Positions 4,107 through 54,503 of a stretch of 64,000 bases of DNA are shown here, piece after piece. The stretch covers positions 72,785 through 136,784 of the forward strand of contig JBAWZD010000002.1 in assembly GCA_037143195.1 (NCBI GenBank), given 5' to 3'. Below the pieces are notes generated by a model. The model was given only the letters and a program-made list of their open reading frames with translations, did not search any database and was not told where the DNA came from. This DNA is from a bacterium. GTDB lineage: Bacteria > Patescibacteriota > Minisyncoccia > Phycocordibacterales > UBA9973. Each line of letters opens with the position of its first letter. Position 1 is the stretch's first letter. Both the position numbers and the translations under genes were made by a program.

Positions 4107-4949
4107 GTGAAAATATCGAGCACTCGAATCGAAGACGAAGTTATCGCTCTTATTCAAAAACGTTCCATGACAGCAATGGAAATTTTGCAGGGTGTTCGAG
4201 TGGCTCGCCCAAAGACAACAAAGCAGGCCGTGTATTTGGCGATTCGGAATTTGAAACATAGAGAAATCGTGACAATACATGCGAAGCTCGTCTCGCTCTC
4301 GCGAATCTGGATTGACCAAATGGCAGATTTTTATATCTTTGCTCGAAAACAGTATGCTGAGTCGTCAGTGGCAGATAGTGGGTACTTAAATCTAGAAGAA
4401 AAAGATCGAATCACGTATTCATTTAAAAATCCGATCACGACGGATGTATTTTGGGCTCACACGCTCAGTGTACTTACAGAAATTACTCCGCAGAGTGAGC
4501 CAGTCTACATATGGAATCAGCATGAATGGTTTTTCTTGGCACACAGGGAGAGCGAGAGAGCATTGTTTCGCAATATGCGTGAGAAGCGAAAAAGAACGTA
4601 TGTCTTGTCGGCACACAAGAATCATATCGATATGCATGTCGCGAAGGAGTTTGATGGAGACTGGGCACAGTATTACGCACTCGGAGAGCAATTGTTTGCG
4701 AAGCCAAATTATTACACGAACGTAGTTGGAGATTATATTCTGGAAGTTTGGCTCGACGAGAAGATCCAAAGTTCTATCGATTCATTTTACGAGAACTATA
4801 CGTTGCCTACGGAGGAAGCGATTCACGAAATTCAGAGAATCACACGAGAAACAGGGCGAACAAAACTGCGGATTTCGAAAAACAAAAAAAGGGCGAAAGA
4901 AATAAAAAAAATCTTTAGTAAATATTTTCTGATTAAAAACGACAAATAA
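4107..4949 (+). CDS. hypothetical protein, possible N-terminal winged-helix domain
   Basis: 280-aa ORF with a GTG start. A Lys-rich C-terminus is followed by a bidirectional terminator at 4949-5000. Confidence 0.4.
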   Translation: MKISSTRIEDEVIALIQKRSMTAMEILQGVRVARPKTTKQAVYLAIRNLKHREIVTIHAKLVSLSRIWIDQMADFYIFARKQYAESSVADSGYLNLEEKDRITYSFKNPITTDVFWAHTLSVLTEITPQSEPVYIWNQHEWFFLAHRESERALFRNMREKRKRTYVLSAHKNHIDMHVAKEFDGDWAQYYALGEQLFAKPNYYTNVVGDYILEVWLDEKIQSSIDSFYENYTLPTEEAIHEIQRITRETGRTKLRISKNKKRAKEIKKIFSKYFLIKNDK

Positions 4950-5000
4950 AAAACGCCCTCTTTTCCAAACAATCGAAGGAAAAGAGGGCGTTTTTTTATT
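4949..5000. terminator. bidirectional rho-independent terminator
   Basis: AAAAAACGCCCTCTTTTCC...GGAAAAGAGGGCGTTTTTTT lies between convergent genes. Confidence 0.6.
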
Positions 5001-6534: not shown

Positions 6535-6756
6535 ACACGACCTGTAGCCGGTCGTCTAGAAAACGCTTCGAATAGTTCGAATCAAAATGACGGAATATGG
6601 GGAGCACACAATGCGGGAAGTCCTGAGATTCATAATGGTTTGAAGAGTAAACGGGGCTTTTTCTGTACGAACGGCCAAACTAATATACTAAAGTTCGATA
6701 TTCATAGAATACCAGAGCTTTGGCGGAATGTCGAGAAATGGTGCTGTATAGCACAA

Positions 6757-6790
6757 AAAACCACCGCGTGAGCGGTGGTTTTTTGTGCGT
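6757..6790 (-). terminator. rho-independent terminator after clpP
   Basis: AAAAAACCACCGCGTGAGCGGTGGTTTTTTG. Confidence 0.6.
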
Positions 6791-8996: not shown

Positions 8997-9038
8997 ATAC
9001 TCTGAGTATATACAATTTTCCGAAAAATGAAAGAAAAA

Positions 9039-9072
9039 ATCACGCACCAATTCGGTGCGTGATTTTTTCGTA
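9039..9072 (-). terminator. rho-independent terminator after ppa
   Basis: AAAAAATCACGCACCAATTCGGTGCGTGATTTTTT. Confidence 0.55.
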
Positions 9073-9684: not shown

Positions 9685-10860
9685 TTAAGCAGCGTCTTCG
9701 GCTACTGTCTCTTTTTTCTCAACAACTGTTTCACCGTCTGATGATCCTACTGTTTCACCAGCGACTCCTTTGATATCAATTCTCCATCCTGTGAGTTTTG
9801 CGGCGAGACGAACGTTCTGTCCGCCCTTTCCAATCGCGAGTGAGAGCTGATCATCTGCGACTTCAACACTTGCAGTGTGCTCAGTGTCATTGATGACGAC
9901 TGAGAGTGCTTTTGCTGGAGAAAGTGCAGCTGAAACGAATTTTGCTGGGTCAGCATTCCATTCGATGATGTCAATCTTCTCGTTGCCGAGCTCACTCATA
10001 ACAGTTGTTACACGGATACCCTTCTGTCCAACACATGAACCGACTGGATCAACATGTTCGTCAGCTGAGAATACCGCAATTTTAGTACGAGCACCTGCTT
10101 CACGAGCAGTTGATTTGATTTCGACGGTACCACTTGCAACTTCCGGAGCTTCTTGGGCGAAGAGTGCAGTGATAAATTTTGGATGGGTGCGTGATATTTT
10201 GAGAGATACGCCACGAGGAGTTTCTTCGACAGCATAGAGATATGCGCGGATACGCTCACCACGACGGTAGTACTCGTTTGGAATCTGTTCTTCGCGAGGA
10301 AGAATAGCGGTAACGCGACCAATATCGACGAAGACATTGCCGCGCTCCATCTTTTGGATCATGCCACTGACGATATCACCTTCGTGACCGCCAAATTCAC
10401 TCATGATTGCGCCGTGTTCTGCCTCACGGATACGCTGAATGATGACCTGTTTTGCCGTTTGCGCTGCAATACGGCCGTAATCTTCTTTGGCTTCAAGGGG
10501 GAAATTGATTTCCTCACCGACAACTGCGTTTGATTTCATGATGCGAGCATCCTCAAGGAGAATGTGGTGTTCAGGATTGAAGCGAACACGCTCATCGCCT
10601 TCTGGAAGGTCTGGAGTATCAACACCATCTTCTACGAAGTAGACAGTTGATTCATCTGCAACGATTTTTACCTGAAAGAAGTCGGTGCGACCAGTTTCGA
10701 GGTCAAAATGCGCGCGGACGATCTGTCCACGTTTGCCGTAGTCTTTTTTGTAAGCGGCGGCGAGTGCCTGTTCGATGGCATCGATGATCTTCTCGCGGGG
10801 GACTCGGCGCTCTGTTTCGAGCTGATCGAGGGCTATTTTGAGTGCTTTGAGGTCTAACAT
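9685..10860 (-). CDS. nusA: transcription termination/antitermination factor NusA
   Basis: NusA N-terminal domain followed by S1 and KH regions (GARTKIAVFSADEHVDPVGSCVGQKGIRV). Confidence 0.9.
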   Translation of the reverse strand: MLDLKALKIALDQLETERRVPREKIIDAIEQALAAAYKKDYGKRGQIVRAHFDLETGRTDFFQVKIVADESTVYFVEDGVDTPDLPEGDERVRFNPEHHILLEDARIMKSNAVVGEEINFPLEAKEDYGRIAAQTAKQVIIQRIREAEHGAIMSEFGGHEGDIVSGMIQKMERGNVFVDIGRVTAILPREEQIPNEYYRRGERIRAYLYAVEETPRGVSLKISRTHPKFITALFAQEAPEVASGTVEIKSTAREAGARTKIAVFSADEHVDPVGSCVGQKGIRVTTVMSELGNEKIDIIEWNADPAKFVSAALSPAKALSVVINDTEHTASVEVADDQLSLAIGKGGQNVRLAAKLTGWRIDIKGVAGETVGSSDGETVVEKKETVAEDAA

Positions 10861-11059
10861 ATATGATTTTAGCCTTATTTTATAAGGCTCGTTATTAAAT
10901 TTTCTAATTTTTGATACGGCGCGCAGGTACTCCCTTTAAAAAAAAGAGCCGGCCCGATGGCCGACATACCGAAACACCTTATCTAGTAACATATATATAT
11001 TACTCTGGCTGGTAAAAAGTGTCAATACGGGATGTGCGGCGACATAATATGTGTTTGTC

Positions 11060-14308: not shown

Positions 14309-14418
14309 TCTGATTCTGGTTGTATACAATAAATCAGTGAGCAAAAAATCCGCGTGAGCGGATTTTTTGCTAGGCAGAATTTTTTTTCATTGATATAATG
14401 AATGAGTAAAAAATTCTT

Positions 14419-22221: not shown

Positions 22222-22265
22222 GCGGACAAAATCAAAAACGCCCTAGAGGGCGTTTTTGATTTTGT
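22222..22265. terminator. bidirectional terminator between pgk and HIT gene (20-bp perfect IR)
   Basis: GCGGACAAAATCAAAAACGCCC-TAGAG-GGCGTTTTTGATTTTGTCCGC. It overlaps the HIT gene stop. Confidence 0.55.
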
Positions 22266-22656
22266 CCGCAATTTGTTTTGCGCCATCGTCTTCATATTTT
22301 GTGCCGTGCCAGAGTTCGTAGCCGTCACCTTCGTGACGAGGCATAACGTGTACGTGTGCATGAAAGACGACTTGTCCGGCAAACGTGCCGTTGTTCATCG
22401 CGATATTGAGATCGGGCGAGGGGATGCCTGTTTGGATGCCGTGAGCGACCTTCTTTACGGTGTCCATGACTTTGCTCCAGACATCGGCGGGTGCTTCAAA
22501 TACATTCGCGTAGTGCTCTTTGGGAATGACGAGTGTATGCCCCGGATTGACCGGCATGATGTCGAGGAAGGCGAGGGTGTCGGCGTCCTCGTATATTTTT
22601 TCACACGGGATTTCGCCCGCGACGATTTTGCAAAAGAGGCAGTTTGTGTCTTTCAT
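22243..22656 (-). CDS. HIT-family (histidine triad) hydrolase
   Basis: MKDTNCLFCKIVAGEIP...HAHVHVMPR carries the histidine triad. Only the C-terminal 137 aa of the 299-aa track ORF is HIT-like, so the gene is called from the internal ATG. Confidence 0.75.
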   Translation of the reverse strand: MKDTNCLFCKIVAGEIPCEKIYEDADTLAFLDIMPVNPGHTLVIPKEHYANVFEAPADVWSKVMDTVKKVAHGIQTGIPSPDLNIAMNNGTFAGQVVFHAHVHVMPRHEGDGYELWHGTKYEDDGAKQIADKIKNAL

Positions 22657-30603: not shown

Positions 30604-32718
30604 ATGCGCCCCTCACGTCTTTTCATTCTGATCGCGAGTGTTATCGGATTCCTCATTCCGGTGGCACTTTTTGCTTCCACGGGTGGCATTGATGCGACGA
30701 ATCACACCGCACGATTGTGTTCGAACGAGGATTGTTCCGCCTATTCAATCGTCAATTGGAAACCAACAAACGGTGGGGGAGTTTCAATTACCGATACAAC
30801 ACTTTCTGGATATATTTGGTCAAACAAACTCGGATGGATCAATCTCGCGCCAATAAATGGCGGAGTGCACAACACCTCGAGCGGTACAGTCTCGGGCGAT
30901 GCATGGGGCTCGACCGCGAGTTGGGTGAATTTTCGTCCAACACACGGCGGAGTCACGATCAATCCGTCGACGGGGGAATTTTCTGGCTATGCATGGGTTT
31001 CCGGTGGCGGCTGGATGCTGTTTGATTGTTCCAAAGCCGATGCTTGTGTGAAGACTGATTGGCGTCCAACTGTTGTGGTGACGACGCACACCACTCCACC
31101 TCCTCCGCTCATTTGTCTCGACCGCACAGCGCTCAATTATGGAGGATCGCTTCCGTGTGTGTACCCGACACTGTGTACTGATACAACTGCGACCAATTAT
31201 GGTTCCGTTGGAATGTGTACGTACGCATTATTGTGTCAGGATCGAACGGCAACAAATTTCGGCGGGTCATTACCGTGTACGTATACGCTGACGTGTACTG
31301 ACACAACGGCGACGAATTACGGTTCTACCGGTAGCTGCACCTACGCGCTATTGTGTCGAGACCGCACCGCTACCAACTATGGCGGAGCATTGCCATGTTC
31401 CTATGCGACGACTTGTACCGATACTGCAGCGACCAACTACGGCGCGACGGGTGCGTGTACGTATGCGCCACCACCACTATGTCTTGATACAACTGCGACG
31501 AACTACCTCGGTTCATTTCCATGTGTATACGCAAGCACAATCTGTACTGATCCATCAGCTAGCAATTTCCGACAATCTGGCACCTGTGTGTATCCAACAA
31601 TAGTTCACACTGAAACGACCGGAGGGGGAGGCGGTTGTCCAATTTCTACCGCGACTGACATTGTCGGAGAAGTTATCGGCCAAGTAAAAAATAGTTACTG
31701 TAATACGACGCAGACTGTCGGCACGACATACAAAAAAGTAAAAGCGATTCTTGGTACGAGCACTGCCACAAAAGCTGAAGCTGTTGCTGCGACCGTGGGA
31801 GTTGTTGCAAGTGCTGCAACATCAATTTTCACCGCGCTCTTTTTGAATCCACTTTCATTCTCCGAAATCTTCCTGATCCCTGCTCGCTTGTGGTCGCTTC
31901 TCCTCGCTGCGCTCGGACTCAAAAAACGTCACCAGCCATGGGGCACGGTCTATGACAGTATCACCAAACAACCACTTGATCCTGCATATGTGACACTCCG
32001 TACTATTGAAGGAGAAGACGTCGTTTCCAATTTGACCGACCTCGATGGACGATTCGGATTCGTGGTGCCAAAGCCAGGTGTGTATTCAATCTTCGCGCAG
32101 AAGACGAACTATCTTTTCCCATCACAGCAACTCGTCGGACGTGACCACGACGAGCTCTACCGAGATTTGTATTTCGGCGAACACTTTACTGTTGAGAATG
32201 CGGGAGATGTCGTCATCAAAAATATTCCGATGGATCCAATGCATTTCGATTGGAATGAATTCGCGAAGAATCAACAGAACCTCATGAAGTTCTATTCGAA
32301 GCGTGACAAGATTTTGCGTCGCGTGTCCGACGTCCTTTTTGGCGCAGGATTTGCAATTGCGATTCTTGCGACAGTATTTGCCCCAAAACTATACAATATT
32401 ATTGTCCTCGTTTTGTATGTCGGACTCTTCTTCCTCCGTCAATATGGCAAACATTCACGACCATACGGAGATATCACCGATGCGAAAACCGGTTTGCCAC
32501 TTTCATTTGCGCTCATTCGCATCGCGTCGCTTTCAACTGGCGTTGAGGTCATGCACCGCATTGCCGATGCGCAAGGCCGATATTACGCACTTCTCCCAAA
32601 TGCCGACTACAAAGTCCGCATCGATCGCAAACTGCCCGACGGCACCTATCAAACCGCAGTCACTGACCTACCCGCAACCGTCAAGAAAGGCTATCTCTCG
32701 AGTAAATTCAAGGTGTAG
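30604..32718 (+). CDS. large surface/membrane protein with GYAW repeats, eight 20-aa two-Cys tandem repeats, and a C-terminal TM domain
   Basis: N-terminal anchor. Three repeats of LSGYIWSNKLGWINL / VSGDAWGSTASWVNF / FSGYAWVSGGGWMLF. Eight copies of xC(T/Q/R)DxTATNYGxxxxC(T/V)Yxx. A Gly5 linker and about four C-terminal TM helices. The stop codon lies inside a 42-bp perfect inverted repeat. Confidence 0.65.
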   Translation: MRPSRLFILIASVIGFLIPVALFASTGGIDATNHTARLCSNEDCSAYSIVNWKPTNGGGVSITDTTLSGYIWSNKLGWINLAPINGGVHNTSSGTVSGDAWGSTASWVNFRPTHGGVTINPSTGEFSGYAWVSGGGWMLFDCSKADACVKTDWRPTVVVTTHTTPPPPLICLDRTALNYGGSLPCVYPTLCTDTTATNYGSVGMCTYALLCQDRTATNFGGSLPCTYTLTCTDTTATNYGSTGSCTYALLCRDRTATNYGGALPCSYATTCTDTAATNYGATGACTYAPPPLCLDTTATNYLGSFPCVYASTICTDPSASNFRQSGTCVYPTIVHTETTGGGGGCPISTATDIVGEVIGQVKNSYCNTTQTVGTTYKKVKAILGTSTATKAEAVAATVGVVASAATSIFTALFLNPLSFSEIFLIPARLWSLLLAALGLKKRHQPWGTVYDSITKQPLDPAYVTLRTIEGEDVVSNLTDLDGRFGFVVPKPGVYSIFAQKTNYLFPSQQLVGRDHDELYRDLYFGEHFTVENAGDVVIKNIPMDPMHFDWNEFAKNQQNLMKFYSKRDKILRRVSDVLFGAGFAIAILATVFAPKLYNIIVLVLYVGLFFLRQYGKHSRPYGDITDAKTGLPLSFALIRIASLSTGVEVMHRIADAQGRYYALLPNADYKVRIDRKLPDGTYQTAVTDLPATVKKGYLSSKFKV

Positions 32719-32856
32719 CACAGAAAAGTGCAAAAAGGTGCTCTCGGAAGCACCAGCGTAAAATCCTGCTGGATTTTCGCCTCACGCTCGCGCCGTCGCG
32801 CTCCGCGAGTGCTTCCGAGAGCACCTTTTTGCACTTTTCTGTGCTACACCTTGCTT
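32715..32856. repeat. 42-bp perfect inverted repeat with ~58-nt structured loop, overlapping stop codon of surface-protein gene
   Basis: The arm GGTGTAGCACAGAAAAGTGCAAAAAGGTGCTCTCGGAAGCAC pairs with its exact reverse complement. The loop contains a CGCTCGCG motif and an inner small hairpin. Confidence 0.7.
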
Positions 32857-32957
32857 TTTTTCGAGACTCTATGTATAGTACTGACCTAAGCGAGTGCTCC
32901 TAGATATTGTTCGAGTTGCTTCTGGGTGTTACCTTGGCTTTTTATTTTAATTACTAC

Positions 32958-34011: not shown

Positions 34012-36177
34012 ATGGAACGCGATTATCCTCTCAATAAGGTTCGAAACTTCGGTATCATTGCCCACATTGATGCCGGCAAGACCACGACATCTGAGCGTGT
34101 GCTCTTTTATACGGGTGTCTCCCATAAGATCGGAGAAGTGCACGAAGGTGAAGCTGTGATGGACTGGATGGAGCAGGAGCGTGAGCGTGGAATCACGATT
34201 ACGGCTGCTGCGACAACATGTTTTTGGACACCGACCTACGTCCCCGACGTCAAAGACTTGAGCAAGAAGTTCCGCTTCAACCTCATCGATACTCCTGGAC
34301 ACATCGACTTCACTGTGGAAGTGAAGCGTTCTCTCCGTGTGCTTGACGGTGCAGTCGTCGTCTTCGACGGTGTTGCCGGAGTTGAGCCACAGTCAGAGAC
34401 CAACTGGCGCTACGCCGACGAGGCCAATGTTCCTCGTATCTGTTTCATCAACAAGCTCGACCGAACAGGTGCAAACTTTGAGAAATCATTCGCATCTATC
34501 ATCGACCGTCTCAGTAAGAAAGCTGTTCGTCTCCACCTCCCAATCGGTCTCGAAGAAAAATTCGAAGGTGTTATTGACCTCCTCCAAAACAAAGCAGTTC
34601 GCTTTGAAGGAGACAAGGGTGAAAAGGTCGTTGTTTCAGACAACATTCCAGAAGATATGAAGGCCGATGTTGCAAAATATCGTGCAGAACTCATCGAAGC
34701 AATCGTTGCAAACGACGATGCAATGATGACTGCATATCTCGATGGTAAAGAGCCATCACTTGCTGACCTCAAAAAGGTGCTCCGCAAGGCTGTTATCGCA
34801 AACGACATCTTCCCAGTGCTCGCTGGAACGGCACTCAAGAACAAGGGTGTTCAGCTCGTGCTCGACGCAGTTGTCGACTACCTCCCATCACCATCTGACA
34901 TGCCACCAATGCATGCAATCAACCCTGACACCGAAGAGGATGTTGTCATCACGGCAAACGACAATGAGCCACTCTCAGCGCTTGCCTTCAAAGTTGCGTC
35001 TGACCCATTCGTTGGACAGCTCATCTTCTTCCGCGTGTACTCAGGAACGCTTTCTGCTGGATCATATGTCTACAACCCACGCACTCGCAACAAAGAGCGC
35101 GTTGGCCGTATCGTTCGTATGCACGCAAACGAACGTGAAGAAGTGAAGAAAGTATTCGCTGGAGAAATCGCAGCGGCAGTTGGACTCAAAGAGGCGATCA
35201 CCTCTGATACACTCTGTGAGCCAGAGCACCCAATCGCCCTTGACCGTATCGTCTTCCCAGAGCCTGTTATCTCGATGCGTATCGAGCCAAAGACAAAGGC
35301 TGACCAAGAAAAAATGGGTATGGCACTCAACCGTCTCGGTCAAGAAGATCCAACATTCCGCGTTTCAACAGATCAGGAAACAGGTGAGACAATAATCGCC
35401 GGAATGGGAGAACTTCACCTCGAAATCATCGTTGACCGTCTCAAGCGCGAATTCACTGTTGAAGTGAACGTTGGTAAGCCTCAGGTTGCGTACCGCGAAA
35501 CAATTTCGTCTGAATCAGAGGCTGAAGGTAAGTACATCAAGCAGACGGGAGGTCGTGGAAACTACGGTCACGTCAAGATCAAGATGAAGCCAATGGTCAA
35601 AATGACCAAGGAAGAAATCGAAGACCTTCCACGCAACACCAAGCGCGAAGAACACTTCGAATTCATCAACACAATCAAGGGAGGAGCTATTCCATTGGAA
35701 TACATCCCAGCCTGTGAAAAAGGATTCAAAGAAGGTCTCGATCGTGGAGTTGTTGCCGGATTCAAAATGGAAGATATTTCTGTTGAACTCTGGGATGGTT
35801 CGTACCACGATGTGGACTCAAACGAAATGGCCTTCAAGATTGCAGCCTCAATGGCAGTACAAGAAGCTGCGAAGCGTGCAAACCCTGTTATCCTTGAGCC
35901 AATGATGAGTGTTGAAGTGGTGACTCCAGACAAATTCATGGGAGACGTCACTGGATCGCTCTCAGCAAAACGTGGAATCATCGAAGGTATGGAGCAGCGT
36001 GGACTCAACCAAGCCGTCAAAGCTGTGGTGCCACTCTCTGAAATGTTCGGTTACATGACGAACCTTCGCTCAATGACAGAAGGTCGCGCAGGATTCACAA
36101 TGGAATTCCTCCGCTACGACATCGTTCCGAAGAACGTTGCTGATGAAATCGTCAAGGCTCGTTCAGCGACAGCGTAA
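34012..36177 (+). CDS. fusA: elongation factor G
   Basis: AHIDAGKTTT G-domain and EF-G domains II-V. Confidence 0.95.
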   Translation: MERDYPLNKVRNFGIIAHIDAGKTTTSERVLFYTGVSHKIGEVHEGEAVMDWMEQERERGITITAAATTCFWTPTYVPDVKDLSKKFRFNLIDTPGHIDFTVEVKRSLRVLDGAVVVFDGVAGVEPQSETNWRYADEANVPRICFINKLDRTGANFEKSFASIIDRLSKKAVRLHLPIGLEEKFEGVIDLLQNKAVRFEGDKGEKVVVSDNIPEDMKADVAKYRAELIEAIVANDDAMMTAYLDGKEPSLADLKKVLRKAVIANDIFPVLAGTALKNKGVQLVLDAVVDYLPSPSDMPPMHAINPDTEEDVVITANDNEPLSALAFKVASDPFVGQLIFFRVYSGTLSAGSYVYNPRTRNKERVGRIVRMHANEREEVKKVFAGEIAAAVGLKEAITSDTLCEPEHPIALDRIVFPEPVISMRIEPKTKADQEKMGMALNRLGQEDPTFRVSTDQETGETIIAGMGELHLEIIVDRLKREFTVEVNVGKPQVAYRETISSESEAEGKYIKQTGGRGNYGHVKIKMKPMVKMTKEEIEDLPRNTKREEHFEFINTIKGGAIPLEYIPACEKGFKEGLDRGVVAGFKMEDISVELWDGSYHDVDSNEMAFKIAASMAVQEAAKRANPVILEPMMSVEVVTPDKFMGDVTGSLSAKRGIIEGMEQRGLNQAVKAVVPLSEMFGYMTNLRSMTEGRAGFTMEFLRYDIVPKNVADEIVKARSATA

Positions 36178-36204
36178 GGTAAGACGACAAACGAATGAAA
36201 GAAG

Positions 36205-36240
36205 CAAAAGGCGCGCCCTTCGGGCGCGCCTTTTGTATAC
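36205..36240. terminator. bidirectional GC-hairpin terminator (copy 1 of identical pair)
   Basis: CAAAAGGCGCGCCCTTCGGGCGCGCCTTTTGTAT lies after fusA. Confidence 0.6.
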
Positions 36241-36388
36241 CGAAATGTGCCAATGATGCGTAGCCATATTTTGGTCAGTTTCTTTTTTTGTGTAGTAGTA
36301 TACAATTAAATGAGATTGATTAATTTAGGTTTATGCTAAGAATGAAAAAAATAATTTTAAACAAATATATCTGGGGGCACTATTTTTA

Positions 36389-37210
36389 GTGTGTTTTTGT
36401 CCTGTTACGTTGTTCGCGCAAGTATTATTTGGTGGTGATACTGGTTTTCGTGTCATATTATCCAATCTTACAACTACATCAGTAACAGTAACTATTCCCC
36501 CAGTTACAGGAAAAGTAGAGAAGGACGCGGTGTTTCATTTAAGAGATGCAACTGATAATAAAAATTGGGTCGGTGGGGATACATGGGCAGACCCAGTCGG
36601 TGGTTTCGATTTCGTTCCCTGCTGTACTGTAAAAATTGCGAACGGAACGATAACAAAAACGTTCACCTTGAAGCCCCAACATATTTATAACATTGATGCG
36701 ATGGTAAATTTTGAAAGCGATTTTCAGGACACCGATGCGATAGAATTTAATACAGGCTGCCCAGACTTGCCGGCCGGTCAACAGCGAGTCTCAGGTTCAT
36801 CATGTGACGACCCGAAACTTTCACCACCGGGAACAGTAAAGTCCTCTGGCTCGTCTGGATCTAACGATACAGGAAGTAACTCAACCTCAGGAGGTACTCA
36901 AAATGGAAATACGCTCGATGTAAAAGCATCAGGATTAAATCTCAAATTGAGTCTTGATAATCCAGTTGGTGATATCAAAACGATACCGGATTTTGTTGAG
37001 AAATGCCTAACCGCGGTGATGCTCCTGCTTTCGCCAATTATTGTGATAATGATACTTTATTCTGGATTCCTTTTTGTTACAGCACAGGGAAACTCAGAAA
37101 AGTTACAGACCGCAAAAAGTACGATTTTATACGCACTCATTGGCGCCGCTATCATTATTGGAGCGAAAGGATTTTCAACGGTAGTCGCGTCATTTTTTAG
37201 TCATTCGTAA
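36389..37210 (+). CDS. secreted protein with C-terminal double-TM segment (TrbC/VirB2 pilin-like tail), unknown function
   Basis: N-terminal hydrophobic signal. The C-terminus AVMLLLSPIIVIMILYSGFLFVTAQG...ILYALIGAAIIIGAKGF has two TM helices. The gene is bracketed by identical hairpins at about 36205-36240 and about 37223-37258. Confidence 0.5.
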   Translation: MCFCPVTLFAQVLFGGDTGFRVILSNLTTTSVTVTIPPVTGKVEKDAVFHLRDATDNKNWVGGDTWADPVGGFDFVPCCTVKIANGTITKTFTLKPQHIYNIDAMVNFESDFQDTDAIEFNTGCPDLPAGQQRVSGSSCDDPKLSPPGTVKSSGSSGSNDTGSNSTSGGTQNGNTLDVKASGLNLKLSLDNPVGDIKTIPDFVEKCLTAVMLLLSPIIVIMILYSGFLFVTAQGNSEKLQTAKSTILYALIGAAIIIGAKGFSTVVASFFSHS

Positions 37211-37222
37211 ACGAGAGAATAT

Positions 37223-37258
37223 ATATTTAGCAAAAGGCGCGCCCGAAGGGCGCGCCTT
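37223..37258. terminator. bidirectional GC-hairpin terminator (copy 2, loop inverted relative to copy 1)
   Basis: CAAAAGGCGCGCCCGAAGGGCGCGCCTTTTGTAT. The stem is identical to that of the hairpin at 36205-36240 and the loop is its reverse complement. Confidence 0.6.
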
Positions 37259-37364
37259 TTGTATTTCTCAACAATTCCTTTGCATAAACTTGATACCCAT
37301 TTTGGTAGTCTTTCTATAGCAAATTGTTCGTTGACAGCACTATAGCAATATTGATATATTTACT

Positions 37365-37670
37365 ATGTACCAGAATAAAGTATTAAGAAACGTTTCTGAA
37401 TTTATAAATAATCTTTCAAACAAAGAGCAAGGAAAAGTTCGACTTGCGCTCGATGCGCTACTGTATGGGCACTTTCAATCAGTCCATACTAAAATGCTCC
37501 GCTTTCCGATTCGTGAGTTGATAGTACTAAATTATCGTATTTTATTTTTCATCGAATCTGACGAAATATATTTTGTTTCTGCATTTACAAAAAAGACAGC
37601 CAAAACGCCGCTTCAGGAAATCGAAAATGCATTGCGAATCTATCACTATCTAAAAAACATATGGAAATAA
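37365..37670 (+). CDS. type II toxin, HigB/RelE-superfamily (Gp49-like)
   Basis: IRELIVLNYRILFFIESDEIYFVSAFTKKTAKTPLQEIENA matches the Gp49/HigB signature. It overlaps the downstream HTH gene by 10 nt. Confidence 0.6.
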   Translation: MYQNKVLRNVSEFINNLSNKEQGKVRLALDALLYGHFQSVHTKMLRFPIRELIVLNYRILFFIESDEIYFVSAFTKKTAKTPLQEIENALRIYHYLKNIWK

Positions 37671-37951
37671 TTAACGGGTTGGAATTTTATACAATGGACG
37701 AAGTCTTCAAAAAGGCTTCAAAATCAAAGGCTTTTATCAAGTCCTATAACGAGGAAGCCATGCGCTTAAATCTCGTCGTGGAGATCAAGCGCGTTCGCAA
37801 AGAGAAGAGGATGACCCAGCTCGCAGTAGCAAAGAAAGCCAAAATGCCACAGTCTGTCATCGCTCGCATCGAGAGTGGTCAACACAGCATTTCGCTCGCC
37901 ACACTCAACCGCATTGCTCACGCCCTCGGCAAACGCGTTCAGCTTGTGTAA
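37661..37951 (+). CDS. XRE-family HTH antitoxin (HigA-like)
   Basis: MTQLAVAKKAKMPQSVIARIESGQHSISLATLNRIAHALG is an HTH_3 domain. Confidence 0.65.
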   Translation: MEIINGLEFYTMDEVFKKASKSKAFIKSYNEEAMRLNLVVEIKRVRKEKRMTQLAVAKKAKMPQSVIARIESGQHSISLATLNRIAHALGKRVQLV

Positions 37952-38465
37952 TTCGAGCAAGTGTCGTCTCCTTAAACTCGACGCCGTAGTTTTTTGTGTT
38001 ACTCGTGTGATTTTAGCCTTATTTTGCTAGGTTATAGGATGTTGCGTTGTATAATTGTAAACAAGGTTCACTCATTTGTAAGTATTTCCCGAGAGCAACA
38101 CTGATAATGGGTTGTTTATCGGGGTATATTTATAAGTAACAGGGTCGAACCCCAGCCCTAACAATCATTCTATGATGAATTATTGTCAGTGTGCACAAAA
38201 GTGTGTAGCGTACATAACTCGCAGGAATGGGCAACGTGATTATGCTTATAAGCATGGTTATAAATGTTGGCCTGTACTTGATAAGAGGTCGTGTTCGGTA
38301 CATAACAAAAAACGATAATAGTTATTAATAACTATTATCGCGAAATGAAAAAGTCTCCTCTCTTTGTCCCGATGGGGACTTTTTCTTTTTTACCTCTACA
38401 TGAGAGAGTATAACCTATTATTTTTATTCTCGCTGTGGAAAAATAAAATAAAGGACATTTTTCAG

Positions 38466-38495
38466 TTGACATAGCCCCTAAATCTGCTAATATCA
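38466..38495 (+). promoter_or_regulatory. sigma70-like promoter upstream of tuf (TTGACA-16/17-TAATAT)
   Basis: Near-consensus -35 and -10 hexamers with 16-17 nt spacing lie about 230 nt upstream of the tuf ATG. Confidence 0.4.
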
Positions 38496-38724
38496 ACCTC
38501 GATAGCTCTCCCCAGGCTATTTTTTCGTGCCTGGGTGCGGACTTTCAGACGGTTAGTGGCTGTGGCAGAGGCAGTTTTGTCTTTTATTTCAAGGCTATTT
38601 TCACGAATAGTTCAAAGGCAAGCTTGGTGCCCCTGCTCTCGCCAGTAACCACCCTCGCGCAGGCTCGCGCATTATTAGTTCTTAATTTTATAAGCTTACT
38701 TTACTAAGTAGCTCAAAAAATCAT

Positions 38725-39924
38725 ATGGCAGAAGAATTCAACCGTTCCAAGCCCCATGTCAACGTAGGAACCATCGGTCACGTTGACCACGGCAAAACTA
38801 CTCTTACAGCAGCGATCCTCACGGTTCTTGCTCGACAGGGAAATGGTTACAGTGCAAAGCTCAAGGGTGTTGGAGATATCGACAAGGCTCCTGAAGAAAA
38901 GGCTCGTGGAATCACGATCGCCCTCTCTCACAACGAGTACGAGACTCCTACTCGCCACTACGCTCACATTGACGCTCCAGGACACGCCGACTACATCAAG
39001 AACATGATTACCGGTGCCGCTCAAATGGACGGAGCAATCATCGTTGTTGCTGCGACTGACGGTGTTATGCCACAGACTCGTGAACACATCCTCCTTGCAA
39101 AACAGGTTGGAGTGCCAAAGATCATCGTGTTCCTCAACAAGTGCGACATGGTTGATGATCCAGATCTCATCGAGCTCGTTGAAGAAGAAGTCCGCGAACT
39201 CCTCACCAAGCAGGGCTTCGACGGCGCAGGATGTCCTGTCATCCGTGGTTCAGGTCTCAAGGCTCTCGAGTCTGCAGACAACAATGATCCATGGGCACAG
39301 AAAGTTCTTGAGCTCGCAAACGCTCTCGATACTTACTTCCCACTTCCAGAACGCGACATCACAAAGCCATTCCTCATGCCGGTTGAAGATATCTTCTCAA
39401 TCGAAGGACGCGGAACTGTTGTTACAGGCCGTATCGAGCGTGGAGTTGTGAAGGTTGGTGAAGAAGTTGAAATCGTTGGAATCAAAGATACACAGAAGAC
39501 AACAGTCACTGGTATCGAAATGTTCAACAAGAACCTCAAAGAAGGTATCGCCGGCGACAACGCTGGAATCCTTCTCCGCGGTCTTAAGAAAGAAGACATT
39601 ACTCGTGGACAGGTGCTCGCAAAGATGGGTACTGTGAAGCCTCACTCTGAATTCGAATGTGAAGTTTACATTTTGAAGAAGGAAGAAGGTGGACGTCACA
39701 CTCCATTCTTTAAGGGATACAAGCCTCAGTTCTACGTTCGTACAACTGACGTGACAGGAGATGTCGTGCTTCCAGAAGGAAAGGAAATGGTTATGCCAGG
39801 AGATACAGTAACCCTCAAGGTTAAGCTCGTTACTCCAGTCGCCATGGAACAGGGAATGCGCTTCGCTATCCGCGAAGGAGGCAAGACTGTCGGTGCCGGA
39901 GTCGTAACCAGTATCATCGCGTAG
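38725..39924 (+). CDS. tuf: elongation factor Tu
   Basis: [18 protein letters not shown] and NKCD motifs. Confidence 0.95.
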
Positions 39925-40001
39925 AACTCGTTCTTAGGTTCTCGGGGCTCGGTTCGAGCATTCGCTCGAACCGAGAACCGAGAAACTAAAACCTCATCAT
40001 T

Positions 40002-42208: not shown

Positions 42209-43051
42209 ATGAAAAAATATTCACCGACAACACCATCACGCCGTCACATGACTACCGTCACGTACCGTGGCGTGATCACAAAATCTGAACCGCATAAGGC
42301 GCTCACCTCAGGTGGCAAGCGCGATATGGGTCGCAACAACCTCGGACGCATTACGGTGCGTCACAAGGGAGGAGGCAACAAGAAGCTCTACCGTGATGTA
42401 GACTTCAGTTTTGACAAGAAAGAAATTCCGGCGAAAGTCGTCTCAGTTGAGTACGATCCATTCCGAACTTCATTCATCTCGCTCGTTGTGTACAAGGACG
42501 GAGAGAAGCGTTACATGCTCACACCGAAGTCTGTTCGCCCAGGCGCAACATTCATCGTTTCAGCAGAAGCAACACTCTCGTCTCCAAACCGTCTCCCGCT
42601 CTCAAAAATCCCTGTTGGTACCTTCGTATACAACATTGAGCTCAAACCGCTTGGCGGGGCCAAATTGGTCCGCTCAGCAGGTAACTTTGCTCAGGTTGTG
42701 GCGAACGACAACGGGTACACGCTTATCAAGCTCCCATCATCAGAAGTCCGCAAGGTATCTGAGAAATGCTGGGCAACGATTGGTGAGGTCTCAAACGAAG
42801 AACATCACCTCGTAAACATTGGTAAGGCTGGACGTTCCCGCCATAAGGGTATTCGACCAACAGTTCGTGGTACTGCCATGAACCCAGTCGACCATCCATA
42901 CGGAGGAGGAGAAGGACGCCAAGGCCGTGGAACACGTCGCCCAAAGACAATGTGGGGAAAGGTCACCGGAGGTCGCAAGACTCGTGGACCAAAGAAATAC
43001 TCAAACCACCTCATCGTCTCACGACGCGTCGTCGGAAAGAAGAAGAAATAA
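42209..43051 (+). CDS. rplB: 50S ribosomal protein L2
   Basis: Canonical L2 sequence. Two strong terminators follow at about 43066-43095 and about 43228-43260. Confidence 0.9.
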   Translation: MKKYSPTTPSRRHMTTVTYRGVITKSEPHKALTSGGKRDMGRNNLGRITVRHKGGGNKKLYRDVDFSFDKKEIPAKVVSVEYDPFRTSFISLVVYKDGEKRYMLTPKSVRPGATFIVSAEATLSSPNRLPLSKIPVGTFVYNIELKPLGGAKLVRSAGNFAQVVANDNGYTLIKLPSSEVRKVSEKCWATIGEVSNEEHHLVNIGKAGRSRHKGIRPTVRGTAMNPVDHPYGGGEGRQGRGTRRPKTMWGKVTGGRKTRGPKKYSNHLIVSRRVVGKKKK

Positions 43052-43065
43052 TTTGCATTACACAC

Positions 43066-43095
43066 AAAAACGCGCCCAGACGGGCGCGTTTTTGC
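43066..43095 (+). terminator. rho-independent terminator after rplB
   Basis: AAAAACGCGCCCAGACGGGCGCGTTTTTGC. A second hairpin lies at about 43228-43260. Confidence 0.6.
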
Positions 43096-43357
43096 TTGAC
43101 TTTTTCACCCCAGAGTACTAAATTAAAAATATGTTCGTCCGAAATACAATTATTAGTACCCTCATTATTATCCGCTCGGCGCGGGGGTCTGCTTTTATTG
43201 TATAAATTTCTTGATTCAATAAAACAAAAGCCCCCGCGTACGCGGGGGCTTTTGTTTTATGAGTTTTGAGCCACAGCTCTCGAGAACCCCAAGATTCTTT
43301 AGAGCTGTGGTCCAAAATGAATGACCACGTATTTTCTTCATTAAAAAACCAAAATTT

Positions 43358-43720
43358 ATGACATCAACCATTAGCCAGCTTTCAATAGCTGGAACTCAAT
43401 TCCAAATCATGCACACGATTGCATGTTCATGTCCTTGGCTTAAGCAAATGCTTAAGCGAGAAGAATTTAAATTAAGTACAGAAACGTTCGTCTTAATGAT
43501 GGCAAACGCCCATATGGCAGGATTGCCAAATGAAATTGAGCATGAATACCCTGTCCAATCCTTTTCTGGATGGACCTTTGTTAAAAGGAAGTACAAATCA
43601 GTCTATCTCGTCTCATACAAGAATCATTTGTATGAGTTCACCGGGGCAGGATTTATTTTCGCTGACCCAGACCGTTATTACGGTGCAGGGGCGATAATTC
43701 TTGCTCCAGCAAGAAAGTAA
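43358..43720 (+). CDS. hypothetical protein (inserted between rplB and rpsS)
   Basis: 120-aa ORF with ATG start and no recognisable motifs. Confidence 0.35.
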   Translation: MTSTISQLSIAGTQFQIMHTIACSCPWLKQMLKREEFKLSTETFVLMMANAHMAGLPNEIEHEYPVQSFSGWTFVKRKYKSVYLVSYKNHLYEFTGAGFIFADPDRYYGAGAIILAPARK

Positions 43721-54386: not shown

Positions 54387-54503
54387 CGCCGTGCGCATGC
54401 ACGCATAAAAAAAGGCTACCCCATAAAATTCTGTTGAATTTTTGGGCCCGCTCAGGCCGTCGCCTTCCGCGAGGCCTTTTTTTATGCGTGCATGCGCATG
54501 GCG
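54387..54503. repeat. ~30-bp near-perfect inverted repeat with ~57-nt loop downstream of secY
   Basis: CGCCGTGCGCATGCACGCATAAAAAAAGGC pairs with GCCTTTTTTTATGCGTGCATGCGCATGGCG with one mismatch. Confidence 0.6.

Follow-up and report, generated by a model that had tools for sequence, protein, structure and literature searches.

EF-Tu is the most abundant bacterial protein. To our knowledge its regulation is poorly understood, and we know of nothing established about it in the reduced genomes of the Patescibacteria (CPR). Abundant mRNAs can carry 5'-terminal stem-loops that act as stabilisers, of the type represented by ompA. In Escherichia coli, the leader of the S10 operon is bound by the ribosomal protein L4, and the S10 leader of the Firmicutes is a further example of such a regulatory region. 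Structured autoregulatory leaders have been described in the operons of ribosomal proteins and translation factors (PMC7247131, PMC3616713), and a narrow phylogenetic range is typical of the ribosomal-protein leaders (PMC3616713).

The stretch of DNA analysed here (64,000 nucleotides, hereafter the window) contains a non-coding gap at positions 37952-38724, directly upstream of tuf. The comparison with related loci indicates that this gap is composed of two unrelated parts, a strain-specific insert (37963-38455) and the conserved promoter and leader of tuf (38456-38724). In the explanation that we consider the best overall, with a probability of about 0.6, the first part would be the non-coding tail of a strain-specific higBA cassette and the second a conserved structured leader of tuf. 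What was observed directly, and is detailed below, is how the sequence is conserved, how its predicted structures score statistically, and that it shows no sign of a coding function or of a known family.

The tuf leader resembles the leaders of ribosomal-protein and translation-factor operons by its position, a long structured 5' UTR directly before a translation operon (tuf-rpsJ-rplC-rplD and following genes), by helices that display compensatory changes and by a narrow phylogenetic range. It differs from them by the absence of any match to an Rfam leader, by its location upstream of tuf and not of rpsJ, by the lack of a terminator-like attenuator, and by the presence of a separate conserved hairpin between tuf and rpsJ. 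Like the ompA-type stabilisers, it belongs to a very highly expressed gene and has a hairpin that begins 8 nt after the predicted 5' end; however, it is much longer, and it contains an invariant single strand and a covarying long arm that go beyond the need of a simple stabiliser.

The gap had been originally described as devoid of any ORF of at least 60 aa, and this is the case: the longest ORF within 37952-38724 encodes 57 aa (38130-38303, minus strand), and two longer antisense ORFs reach only the edges of the gap. Within the 64-kb window, the longest stretch without an ORF of at least 80 aa (420 bp) is located here, the runner-up being 266 bp long. The GC content is comprised between 0.36 and 0.43 in the gap versus ~0.49 in the flanking genes, and the low-GC tract, which spans 36150-38550, starts already at 36150, just after fusA. 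The Logan contig L009 (SRR12676973), which comes from an independent assembly, is 100% identical over 37232-38527, and the sequence of the gap is therefore not an assembly artefact. The Rfam 15 database was scanned with gathering thresholds on the 64-kb window and on 10 related loci (no match), and with E-value thresholds on the gap, on the insert and on the leader. No family matched the gap, the insert alone or the leader alone (for the leader, none at E<=1), and the families covered include tmRNA, RNase P RNA, 6S, SRP RNA, tRNA, riboswitches, r-protein leaders and group I/II introns.

On the left, the gap is preceded by fusA (34012-36177), by a T4SS-pilin-like gene (36389-37210, plus strand) and by a toxin-antitoxin module. 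The pilin-like gene occupies the left part of the island (36205-37261) and lies between two copies of one 31-bp GC hairpin (CAAAAGGCGCGCCCGAAGGGCGCGCCTTTTG; 36205-36235 and 37231-37261). It is absent from a sister contig, where the toxin gene directly follows fusA, and it therefore has the appearance of a cassette whose gain or loss took place between the hairpin copies. A strong promoter (37331-37360, plus strand) precedes the higBA genes, namely a toxin of the Gp49 family, HigB-type (37365-37670, plus strand; PF05973, 3e-10), and an HTH antitoxin (37661-37951, plus strand; PF01381 (HTH_3), 1.6e-13). The two reading frames overlap by 10 nt, and the pair, a HigB/Gp49 toxin with an HTH antitoxin, is a type II toxin-antitoxin module. 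On the right, tuf (38725-39924, plus strand) is followed by rpsJ, rplC, rplD and onward. Among the matches listed, the closest named relatives of the EF-Tu protein come from 'Pacebacteria' and from Paceibacterota MAGs (Patescibacteria, CPR). No Shine-Dalgarno signal was found before any of the 47 genes; the start codons are preceded by A/T-rich sequence, often ...ATCATATG. The 64-kb window contains no tRNA, rRNA or Rfam match, and ARAGORN detected neither tRNA nor tmRNA in the window or in 36 related loci.

The region between fusA and tuf was compared in close and more distant relatives. In the sister strains (L001, L003-L005, L007 and L008), whose EF-Tu is 99-100% identical to that of the window, the alignment ends at 37962 and resumes at ~38452-38456, with an identity of 96-97% over the rest of the gap and of 97% through tuf. 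These strains hold, in the place of the insert, the genes of MazE (87 aa) and PemK (112 aa), which have an operator palindrome and a terminator to themselves, whereas L009 carries exactly the higBA unit and the insert together. Further relatives with an EF-Tu 90-95% identical were also compared. In three of them (L091, L095 and L096) the slot is empty: after fusA come only a bidirectional terminator and the -35 element of tuf, within a spacer of 259-277 bp. Elsewhere the slot contains minus-strand ORFs resembling membrane proteins (83 aa in L090, 97 aa in a sister contig of L092), an ORF of 349 aa (L093) or an ORF of 143 aa (L097). In L107 and L111, ORFs are present, and after them come 460-650 bp of non-coding DNA of unrelated sequence. 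In L107 this DNA (2339-2800, ~460 bp, no Rfam match) lies between a 320-aa ORF and the tuf promoter; in L111, two 85-bp inverted repeats (2114-2198 and 2650-2735) flank a non-coding insert of ~450 bp upstream of tuf. In the relatives, a terminator made of an A-run, a hairpin and a T-run, different from that of the window, is found directly before the -35 element of tuf.

Since varied cargo, or none, is found at the same position in the relatives, the stretch from the fusA terminator to the tuf promoter constitutes a hot spot where accessory cargo is inserted. The comparison further indicates that 36178-38455 is one accessory island, of which 37963-38455 is the right end. The locus resembles the genomic-island hot spots with toxin-antitoxin cassettes by the variability of its cargo (higBA, mazEF, a pilin-like gene and small membrane proteins) between two highly conserved genes, by its lower GC content and by the presence of a terminator proper to each unit; it differs from them by the absence of an integrase, of a tRNA gene and of direct-repeat att sites. 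The exchange of cassettes probably proceeds through homologous recombination in fusA and tuf. The original prediction had evoked, among other possibilities, the remnant of an integrated element. This was close to what the relatives indicate, with the correction that the sequence would be the right end of a strain-variable island (the pilin-like gene, higBA and then this segment) in a hot spot. Such a site, at which close strains exchange toxin-antitoxin and other small cassettes, can serve to track strains and to follow the flux of accessory genes in CPR populations.

The right part of the gap would correspond to the ancestral spacer between fusA and tuf, with a strong sigma-70-type promoter and a leader that runs from the transcription start. 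The promoter TTGACA-16-TGCTAATAT (38466..38493, plus strand) has the form TG-n-TAATAT at its -10 element and matches the consensus at 10 of 12 positions. It agrees with the promoter proposed originally, and both hexamers and the TGCTA motif are kept in 11 of the 11 relatives. The last 230 bp had been read as a promoter only, and the conserved structured RNA that they contain had been overlooked. From the predicted start site, the leader extends over ~225 nt (38501..38724, plus strand) and is represented by 11 distinct versions of 162-233 nt. The promoter and leader are 96-97% identical in the sister strains, and both are recognisable within the ~260-300 bp that precede tuf in every examined relative whose EF-Tu is at least ~90% identical. 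In the relatives, the promoter consensus TTGACA...TGCTAWWAT is followed, from the predicted transcription start, by the invariant sequence GATAGCTCTCCCCAGG; in the window, the predicted leader starts with GAUAGCUCUCCCC.... Three further conserved blocks were detected, GTTAGTGGCYGTGGCAGAGG, AAGCTTGGT...GCCARTARC and CATTATYAGTTC, and the four blocks are separated by arms of very different length. No conserved reading frame runs across them.

The distribution of the leader is restricted. A covariance model of the leader (R1) scores 144 bits at the tuf leader and finds no other match in the window; it gave no match in 35 more distant Patescibacteria-type loci, and its matches lie only before tuf in the clade. 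Where the identity of EF-Tu is 85% or less, neither nhmmer nor the covariance model detected a distant homologue. The scan of metagenomes with a 20-mer of the leader gave one true locus and seven chance matches, and the EF-Tu scan of genome contigs contained, among the matches listed, none closer than 85% identity. A tRNA, a tmRNA and a derivation of the leader from a tRNA were rejected on the negative ARAGORN result; in the insert, a T-arm-like GGGTCGAACCCC at 38141-38152 misfits a tRNA.

In the predicted fold of the leader, a hairpin at the 5' end is accompanied by a long, irregular arm that two covarying helices close. In the hairpin P1 (38509-38517 with 38529-38541, plus strand) an invariant 5' strand faces a variable 3' strand; 77-82% of the cells are paired, two structural variants exist among the relatives, and no pair is changed on both sides. 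The long-range helices P2 (38551-38560 with 38641-38650, plus strand; 98-100% paired) and P3 (38564-38575 with 38626-38637, plus strand; 90% paired) enclose a variable apical arm, the whole region covering 38551..38650. RNAalifold recovers the long-range helix with 18 pairs, 4 of them compensatory. The complete structure P1+P2+P3 comprises 29 pairs. It is 89-90% paired, and double-sided changes affect 4-5 pairs; its covariation score is equalled by none of 500 column shuffles, and the controls slid by 1-3 columns are only 25-54% paired. These values come from 10-11 sequences of one narrow clade, three of which are near-identical. Between relatives, the apical arm is swapped for different perfect hairpins, and it is nearly absent in L107, as is commonly seen for variable stems of structured RNAs. 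The leader lies in the predicted 5' UTR, from the promoter to the ATG of tuf, in every relative, and its structure shows compensatory changes across 10 sequences. Altogether, the alignments indicate that 38456-38724 holds a real, conserved and structured 5' leader of tuf.

The roles discussed here for the leader, like those of the insert and the boundaries of the transcripts, are predictions. The leader most likely acts in cis on the expression of tuf, through the stability of the mRNA or the binding of a component of translation. Two main options may be envisaged, a 5' stabiliser of a very abundant mRNA and a protein-binding feedback element. The 5' end of the leader aligns weakly to nucleotides ~801-828 of the 23S rRNA of E. 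coli, taken as reference (GAUAGCU..CUCCCC..GCUAUUU), and the CUCCCC/GGGGAG helix of some leaders presumably corresponds to helix 36. The score of this likeness is reached by 5 of 2000 shuffles for the 31-mer of the window type, and lacks significance with whole leaders and with the other sequence type, so that mimicry of the rRNA is at most suggested by one sequence type; the literature did not lead to the identity of the binding protein. A more elaborate reading of the locus, possible and put forward here only tentatively, is one in which the ~225-nt leader would be an undescribed, clade-specific regulatory RNA through which a translation component (EF-Tu itself, or a ribosomal protein recognising the mimic of 23S ~801-828) feeds back on the synthesis of EF-Tu, the insert supplying a structured RNA whose antisense match to the start region of nusA is 18 nt long. 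In any case, a conserved covarying leader before tuf offers a concrete RNA for the study of feedback control or mRNA stabilisation in genomes that have no Shine-Dalgarno signals.

The spacer between tuf and rpsJ (39925-40001) contains a very stable hairpin of -42 kcal/mol, with arms at 39934-39959 and 39964-39989 and no T-run after it. The same architecture is found in L003, L090, L091, L093, L095 and L111, with compensatory changes in the apical stem, and this hairpin is possibly a real leader of the S10 operon or a processing site. Since it is separate and conserved, the leader upstream of tuf may concern tuf alone and need not control the ribosomal-protein genes.

The insert (37963..38455, plus strand) is an orphan. 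The concatenated six-frame query gave no similarity at E<=10 against 5.8 billion protein clusters, the small ORFs have no credible match in Pfam or NCBIfam, and no start codon has a context in the range of real genes according to a start-context matrix. At the DNA level, blastn gave no match in phages, plasmids or 115 related loci, and scans of viral contigs with four exact 20-28-mer patterns were negative; a phage, plasmid or viral origin was rejected on these grounds. In Rfam nothing approaches the threshold, the best family being ohsC with 26 bits for a threshold of 50. A decayed mazEF was also considered and rejected, as MazE and PemK of the sister strains had no tblastn match in the insert; a frameshifted copy of the 132-aa minus-strand ORF that a third variant holds at the same spacing was excluded by the six-frame protein search alone. 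As no frame matches any protein, the insert is neither a recognisable decayed gene nor a frameshifted form of that ORF.

The predicted fold of the insert is a series of long hairpins followed by an A/T palindrome and by a terminator. In the MFE folds, hairpin A (38073..38136, plus strand) is long and includes several G-U pairs, and hairpin B (38200..38305, plus strand) is long and irregular, with a tip formed by the 14-bp palindrome ATGCTTATAAGCAT, which is present as originally described and located at 38242-38255. Over 37952-38400, the plus strand folds at -140 kcal/mol (z = -6.3) and the minus strand at -102 kcal/mol (z = -2.9), relative to shuffles; over 38060-38392 the values are -112 kcal/mol for the plus strand vs -78 for the minus strand. 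After adjustment for GC content, the plus strand has z = -3.2 and ranks 14th among the 1150 segments of 333 nt of the window (top 1.2%), whereas the minus strand is ordinary (rank 390 of 1150). The intrinsic terminator that closes the island (38343..38392, plus strand) contains the core stem GTCCC-GATG-GGGAC (38366-38379) followed by TTTTTCTTTTTT, a T-run at 38380-38392, and carries an A-run on its 5' side; an extended stem of 16 nt is formed by 38343-38358 with 38374-38389. This Rho-independent terminator is the one announced originally, where positions of features were off by 1-3 bases. It is also, at 38366, the first terminator-like site of the plus strand after the higBA promoter, and the left 400-490 bp of the gap indeed behave as a plus-strand unit closed by a terminator, as proposed.

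The only strong promoters near the insert are those of higBA and of tuf. The insert itself lacks a strong promoter, and nothing terminator-like stands between it and higA; the higBA transcript therefore most likely extends through it and has it as a structured 3' end of ~430 nt. The joint presence of higBA and the insert in L009 is in keeping with this. On this reading of the insert as the non-coding tail of the higBA cassette in the fusA-tuf hot spot, its end would consist of back-to-back hairpins, the A/T palindrome with its T-run acting on the minus strand and the GC hairpin with its T-run on the plus strand. Together they would stop transcription both ways and shield the tuf promoter from the island, a role filled in the relatives by a single bidirectional terminator. 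Three observations count against a mere tail. A separate RNA could arise from a perfect TATAAT at 38050-38055, the strong, strand-specific folding exceeds the needs of a passive sequence, and an 18-nt stretch (38008..38025, plus strand) is identical to 10864-10881 (blastn-short E = 4e-4, with no further similarity), an identity that the tail does not explain. The RNA of the plus strand at 38008-38025 is thereby perfectly complementary to positions -21 to -4 of the nusA mRNA; the chance expectation of such a match is ~1e-3 to 1e-4.

At its other copy, 10864-10881 is the complement of the nusA mRNA (gene at 9685-10860, minus strand) just upstream of the start codon. The 18-mer belongs there to a hairpin, AGCCTTAT-TTT-ATAAGGCT, and this hairpin recurs in L091 and L093, where it is the apical hairpin of the tuf leader.

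These observations lead to other explanations of the insert. The original prediction had suggested that the 400-nt stretch could encode an unannotated ncRNA; it has no Rfam match, no copy in the relatives and no strong promoter of its own, the strand bias of folding stability is the sole point for a role as RNA, and a conserved ncRNA gene is not supported. The insert might specify a strain-specific sRNA of ~330 nt, from the TATAAT at 38050-38055 to 38392, or a 3'-UTR-derived RNA released from the higBA transcript, that would act in trans, for example on the nusA start region. To the plus-strand folding and the complementarity to nusA such an RNA would add a clean intrinsic terminator on the same strand and a two-hairpin 3' end like the generic ends of sRNAs, to which the sub-threshold 26 bits of ohsC may be related. 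However, the TATAAT lacks both a -35 element and an extended -10, the 18-mer lies upstream of it and is partly paired in the predicted fold, its match has the chance expectation given above, and covariation cannot be analysed because no homologue was found anywhere searched; we consider this sRNA unlikely. The opposite view takes the insert for debris without function, either a decayed gene or a scar left by cassette exchanges, its hairpins being left-over terminators; it is somewhat unlikely in our opinion. It would account for a strain-specific orphan of low GC content with no coding or family signal, in a slot that holds real genes in the relatives and in a genome full of palindromic terminators; but decayed genes usually retain some protein similarity, of which there is none at E<=10, compact reduced genomes lose junk fast, and neither the folding bias (top 1.2% of the window) nor the intact terminator is expected of debris.

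Type I toxin-antitoxin loci with convergent transcripts, such as par/Fst of pAD1 and txpA/RatA, provide another comparison. Like them, the insert has terminator hairpins in both orientations and a structured RNA that carries a short hydrophobic ORF: a 33-aa peptide (38227-38328, MGNVIMLISMVINVGLYLIRGRVRYITKNDNSY) would be encoded by a structured mRNA, and a convergent antisense RNA would end at the palindrome and T-run of the minus strand, the whole replacing the mazEF of the sister strains. The peptide has the size and layout of the Fst/Ldr-type toxins, its start codon lies inside hairpin B, and the relatives hold toxin-antitoxin modules in the same slot. The insert differs from the known loci by the absence of a promoter-like site for the antisense RNA at 38395-38460, by the lack of a homologous peptide in the protein database and by a poor start context (-5.1 for the 33-aa ORF vs a mean of +4.4 in real genes). 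With neither a credible toxin start nor an antisense promoter, and with an opposite strand that also reads as hydrophobic, as expected for T-rich DNA, such a locus is very improbable.

The perfect 28-bp palindrome announced originally is present one base to the left of its first position, at 38313..38340, and had been regarded as a potential protein-binding or attachment site. It exceeds chance for random sequence. On the minus strand, the palindrome (38341-38312) is followed by TTTTTTGTTAT, and the site is terminator-like. The spacers between the genes often contain perfect palindromes with 14-23-nt arms, at least 10 being found in the window, mostly terminators with an A-run, a GC stem and a T-run; the palindrome of the insert sets itself apart by its almost pure A/T stem. 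This composition, unlike the GC-core terminators of the genome, together with the perfect 14+14 arms and the location in an exchange hot spot, is what could recommend it as a site of protein binding or of recombination for the exchange of cassettes. But the junctions of the variable segment are at 37962/37963 and ~38455, and the palindrome lies 115 bp inside, away from both. Neither the rest of the window nor the related loci and viral contigs contain it again, no recombinase gene adjoins it (the neighbours are the pilin-like, toxin and antitoxin genes, with no tRNA), and the other cassettes of the slot are without it. A role as attachment site is hardly credible on these data, and a dif/Xer site or an integron attC was rejected by reasoning on the position and the strain-specificity. 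For the insert as a whole, seen as the tail of the higBA cassette, a stretch of 490 bp without relatives has a limited interest unless transcript data reveal a discrete RNA.

Other palindromes of 30-46 bp, perfect or near-perfect, with an A-run, a GC stem and a T-run, were found between genes at 4948-4996, 6751-6788, 9033-9069, 14340-14371, 22222-22269, 43219-43260 and 54387-54503, and are presumably bidirectional terminators. The spacer between rplB and rpsS (43051-43358) contains two such palindromes and is among the most structured spots of the window. The most structured of all (GC-adjusted z = -6.2) is a giant inverted repeat at 32696-32866, located between the ORF 30604-32718 and rpsL, with arms of 63 nt that are 90% complementary and separated by a 45-nt spacer. 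Its core, AAAATCCTGCTGGATTTT...CGTCGCG, matches the 85-bp inverted repeats of L111 at ~80%, and this likeness suggests the existence of a small repeat family, or a MITE-like one, in the clade.
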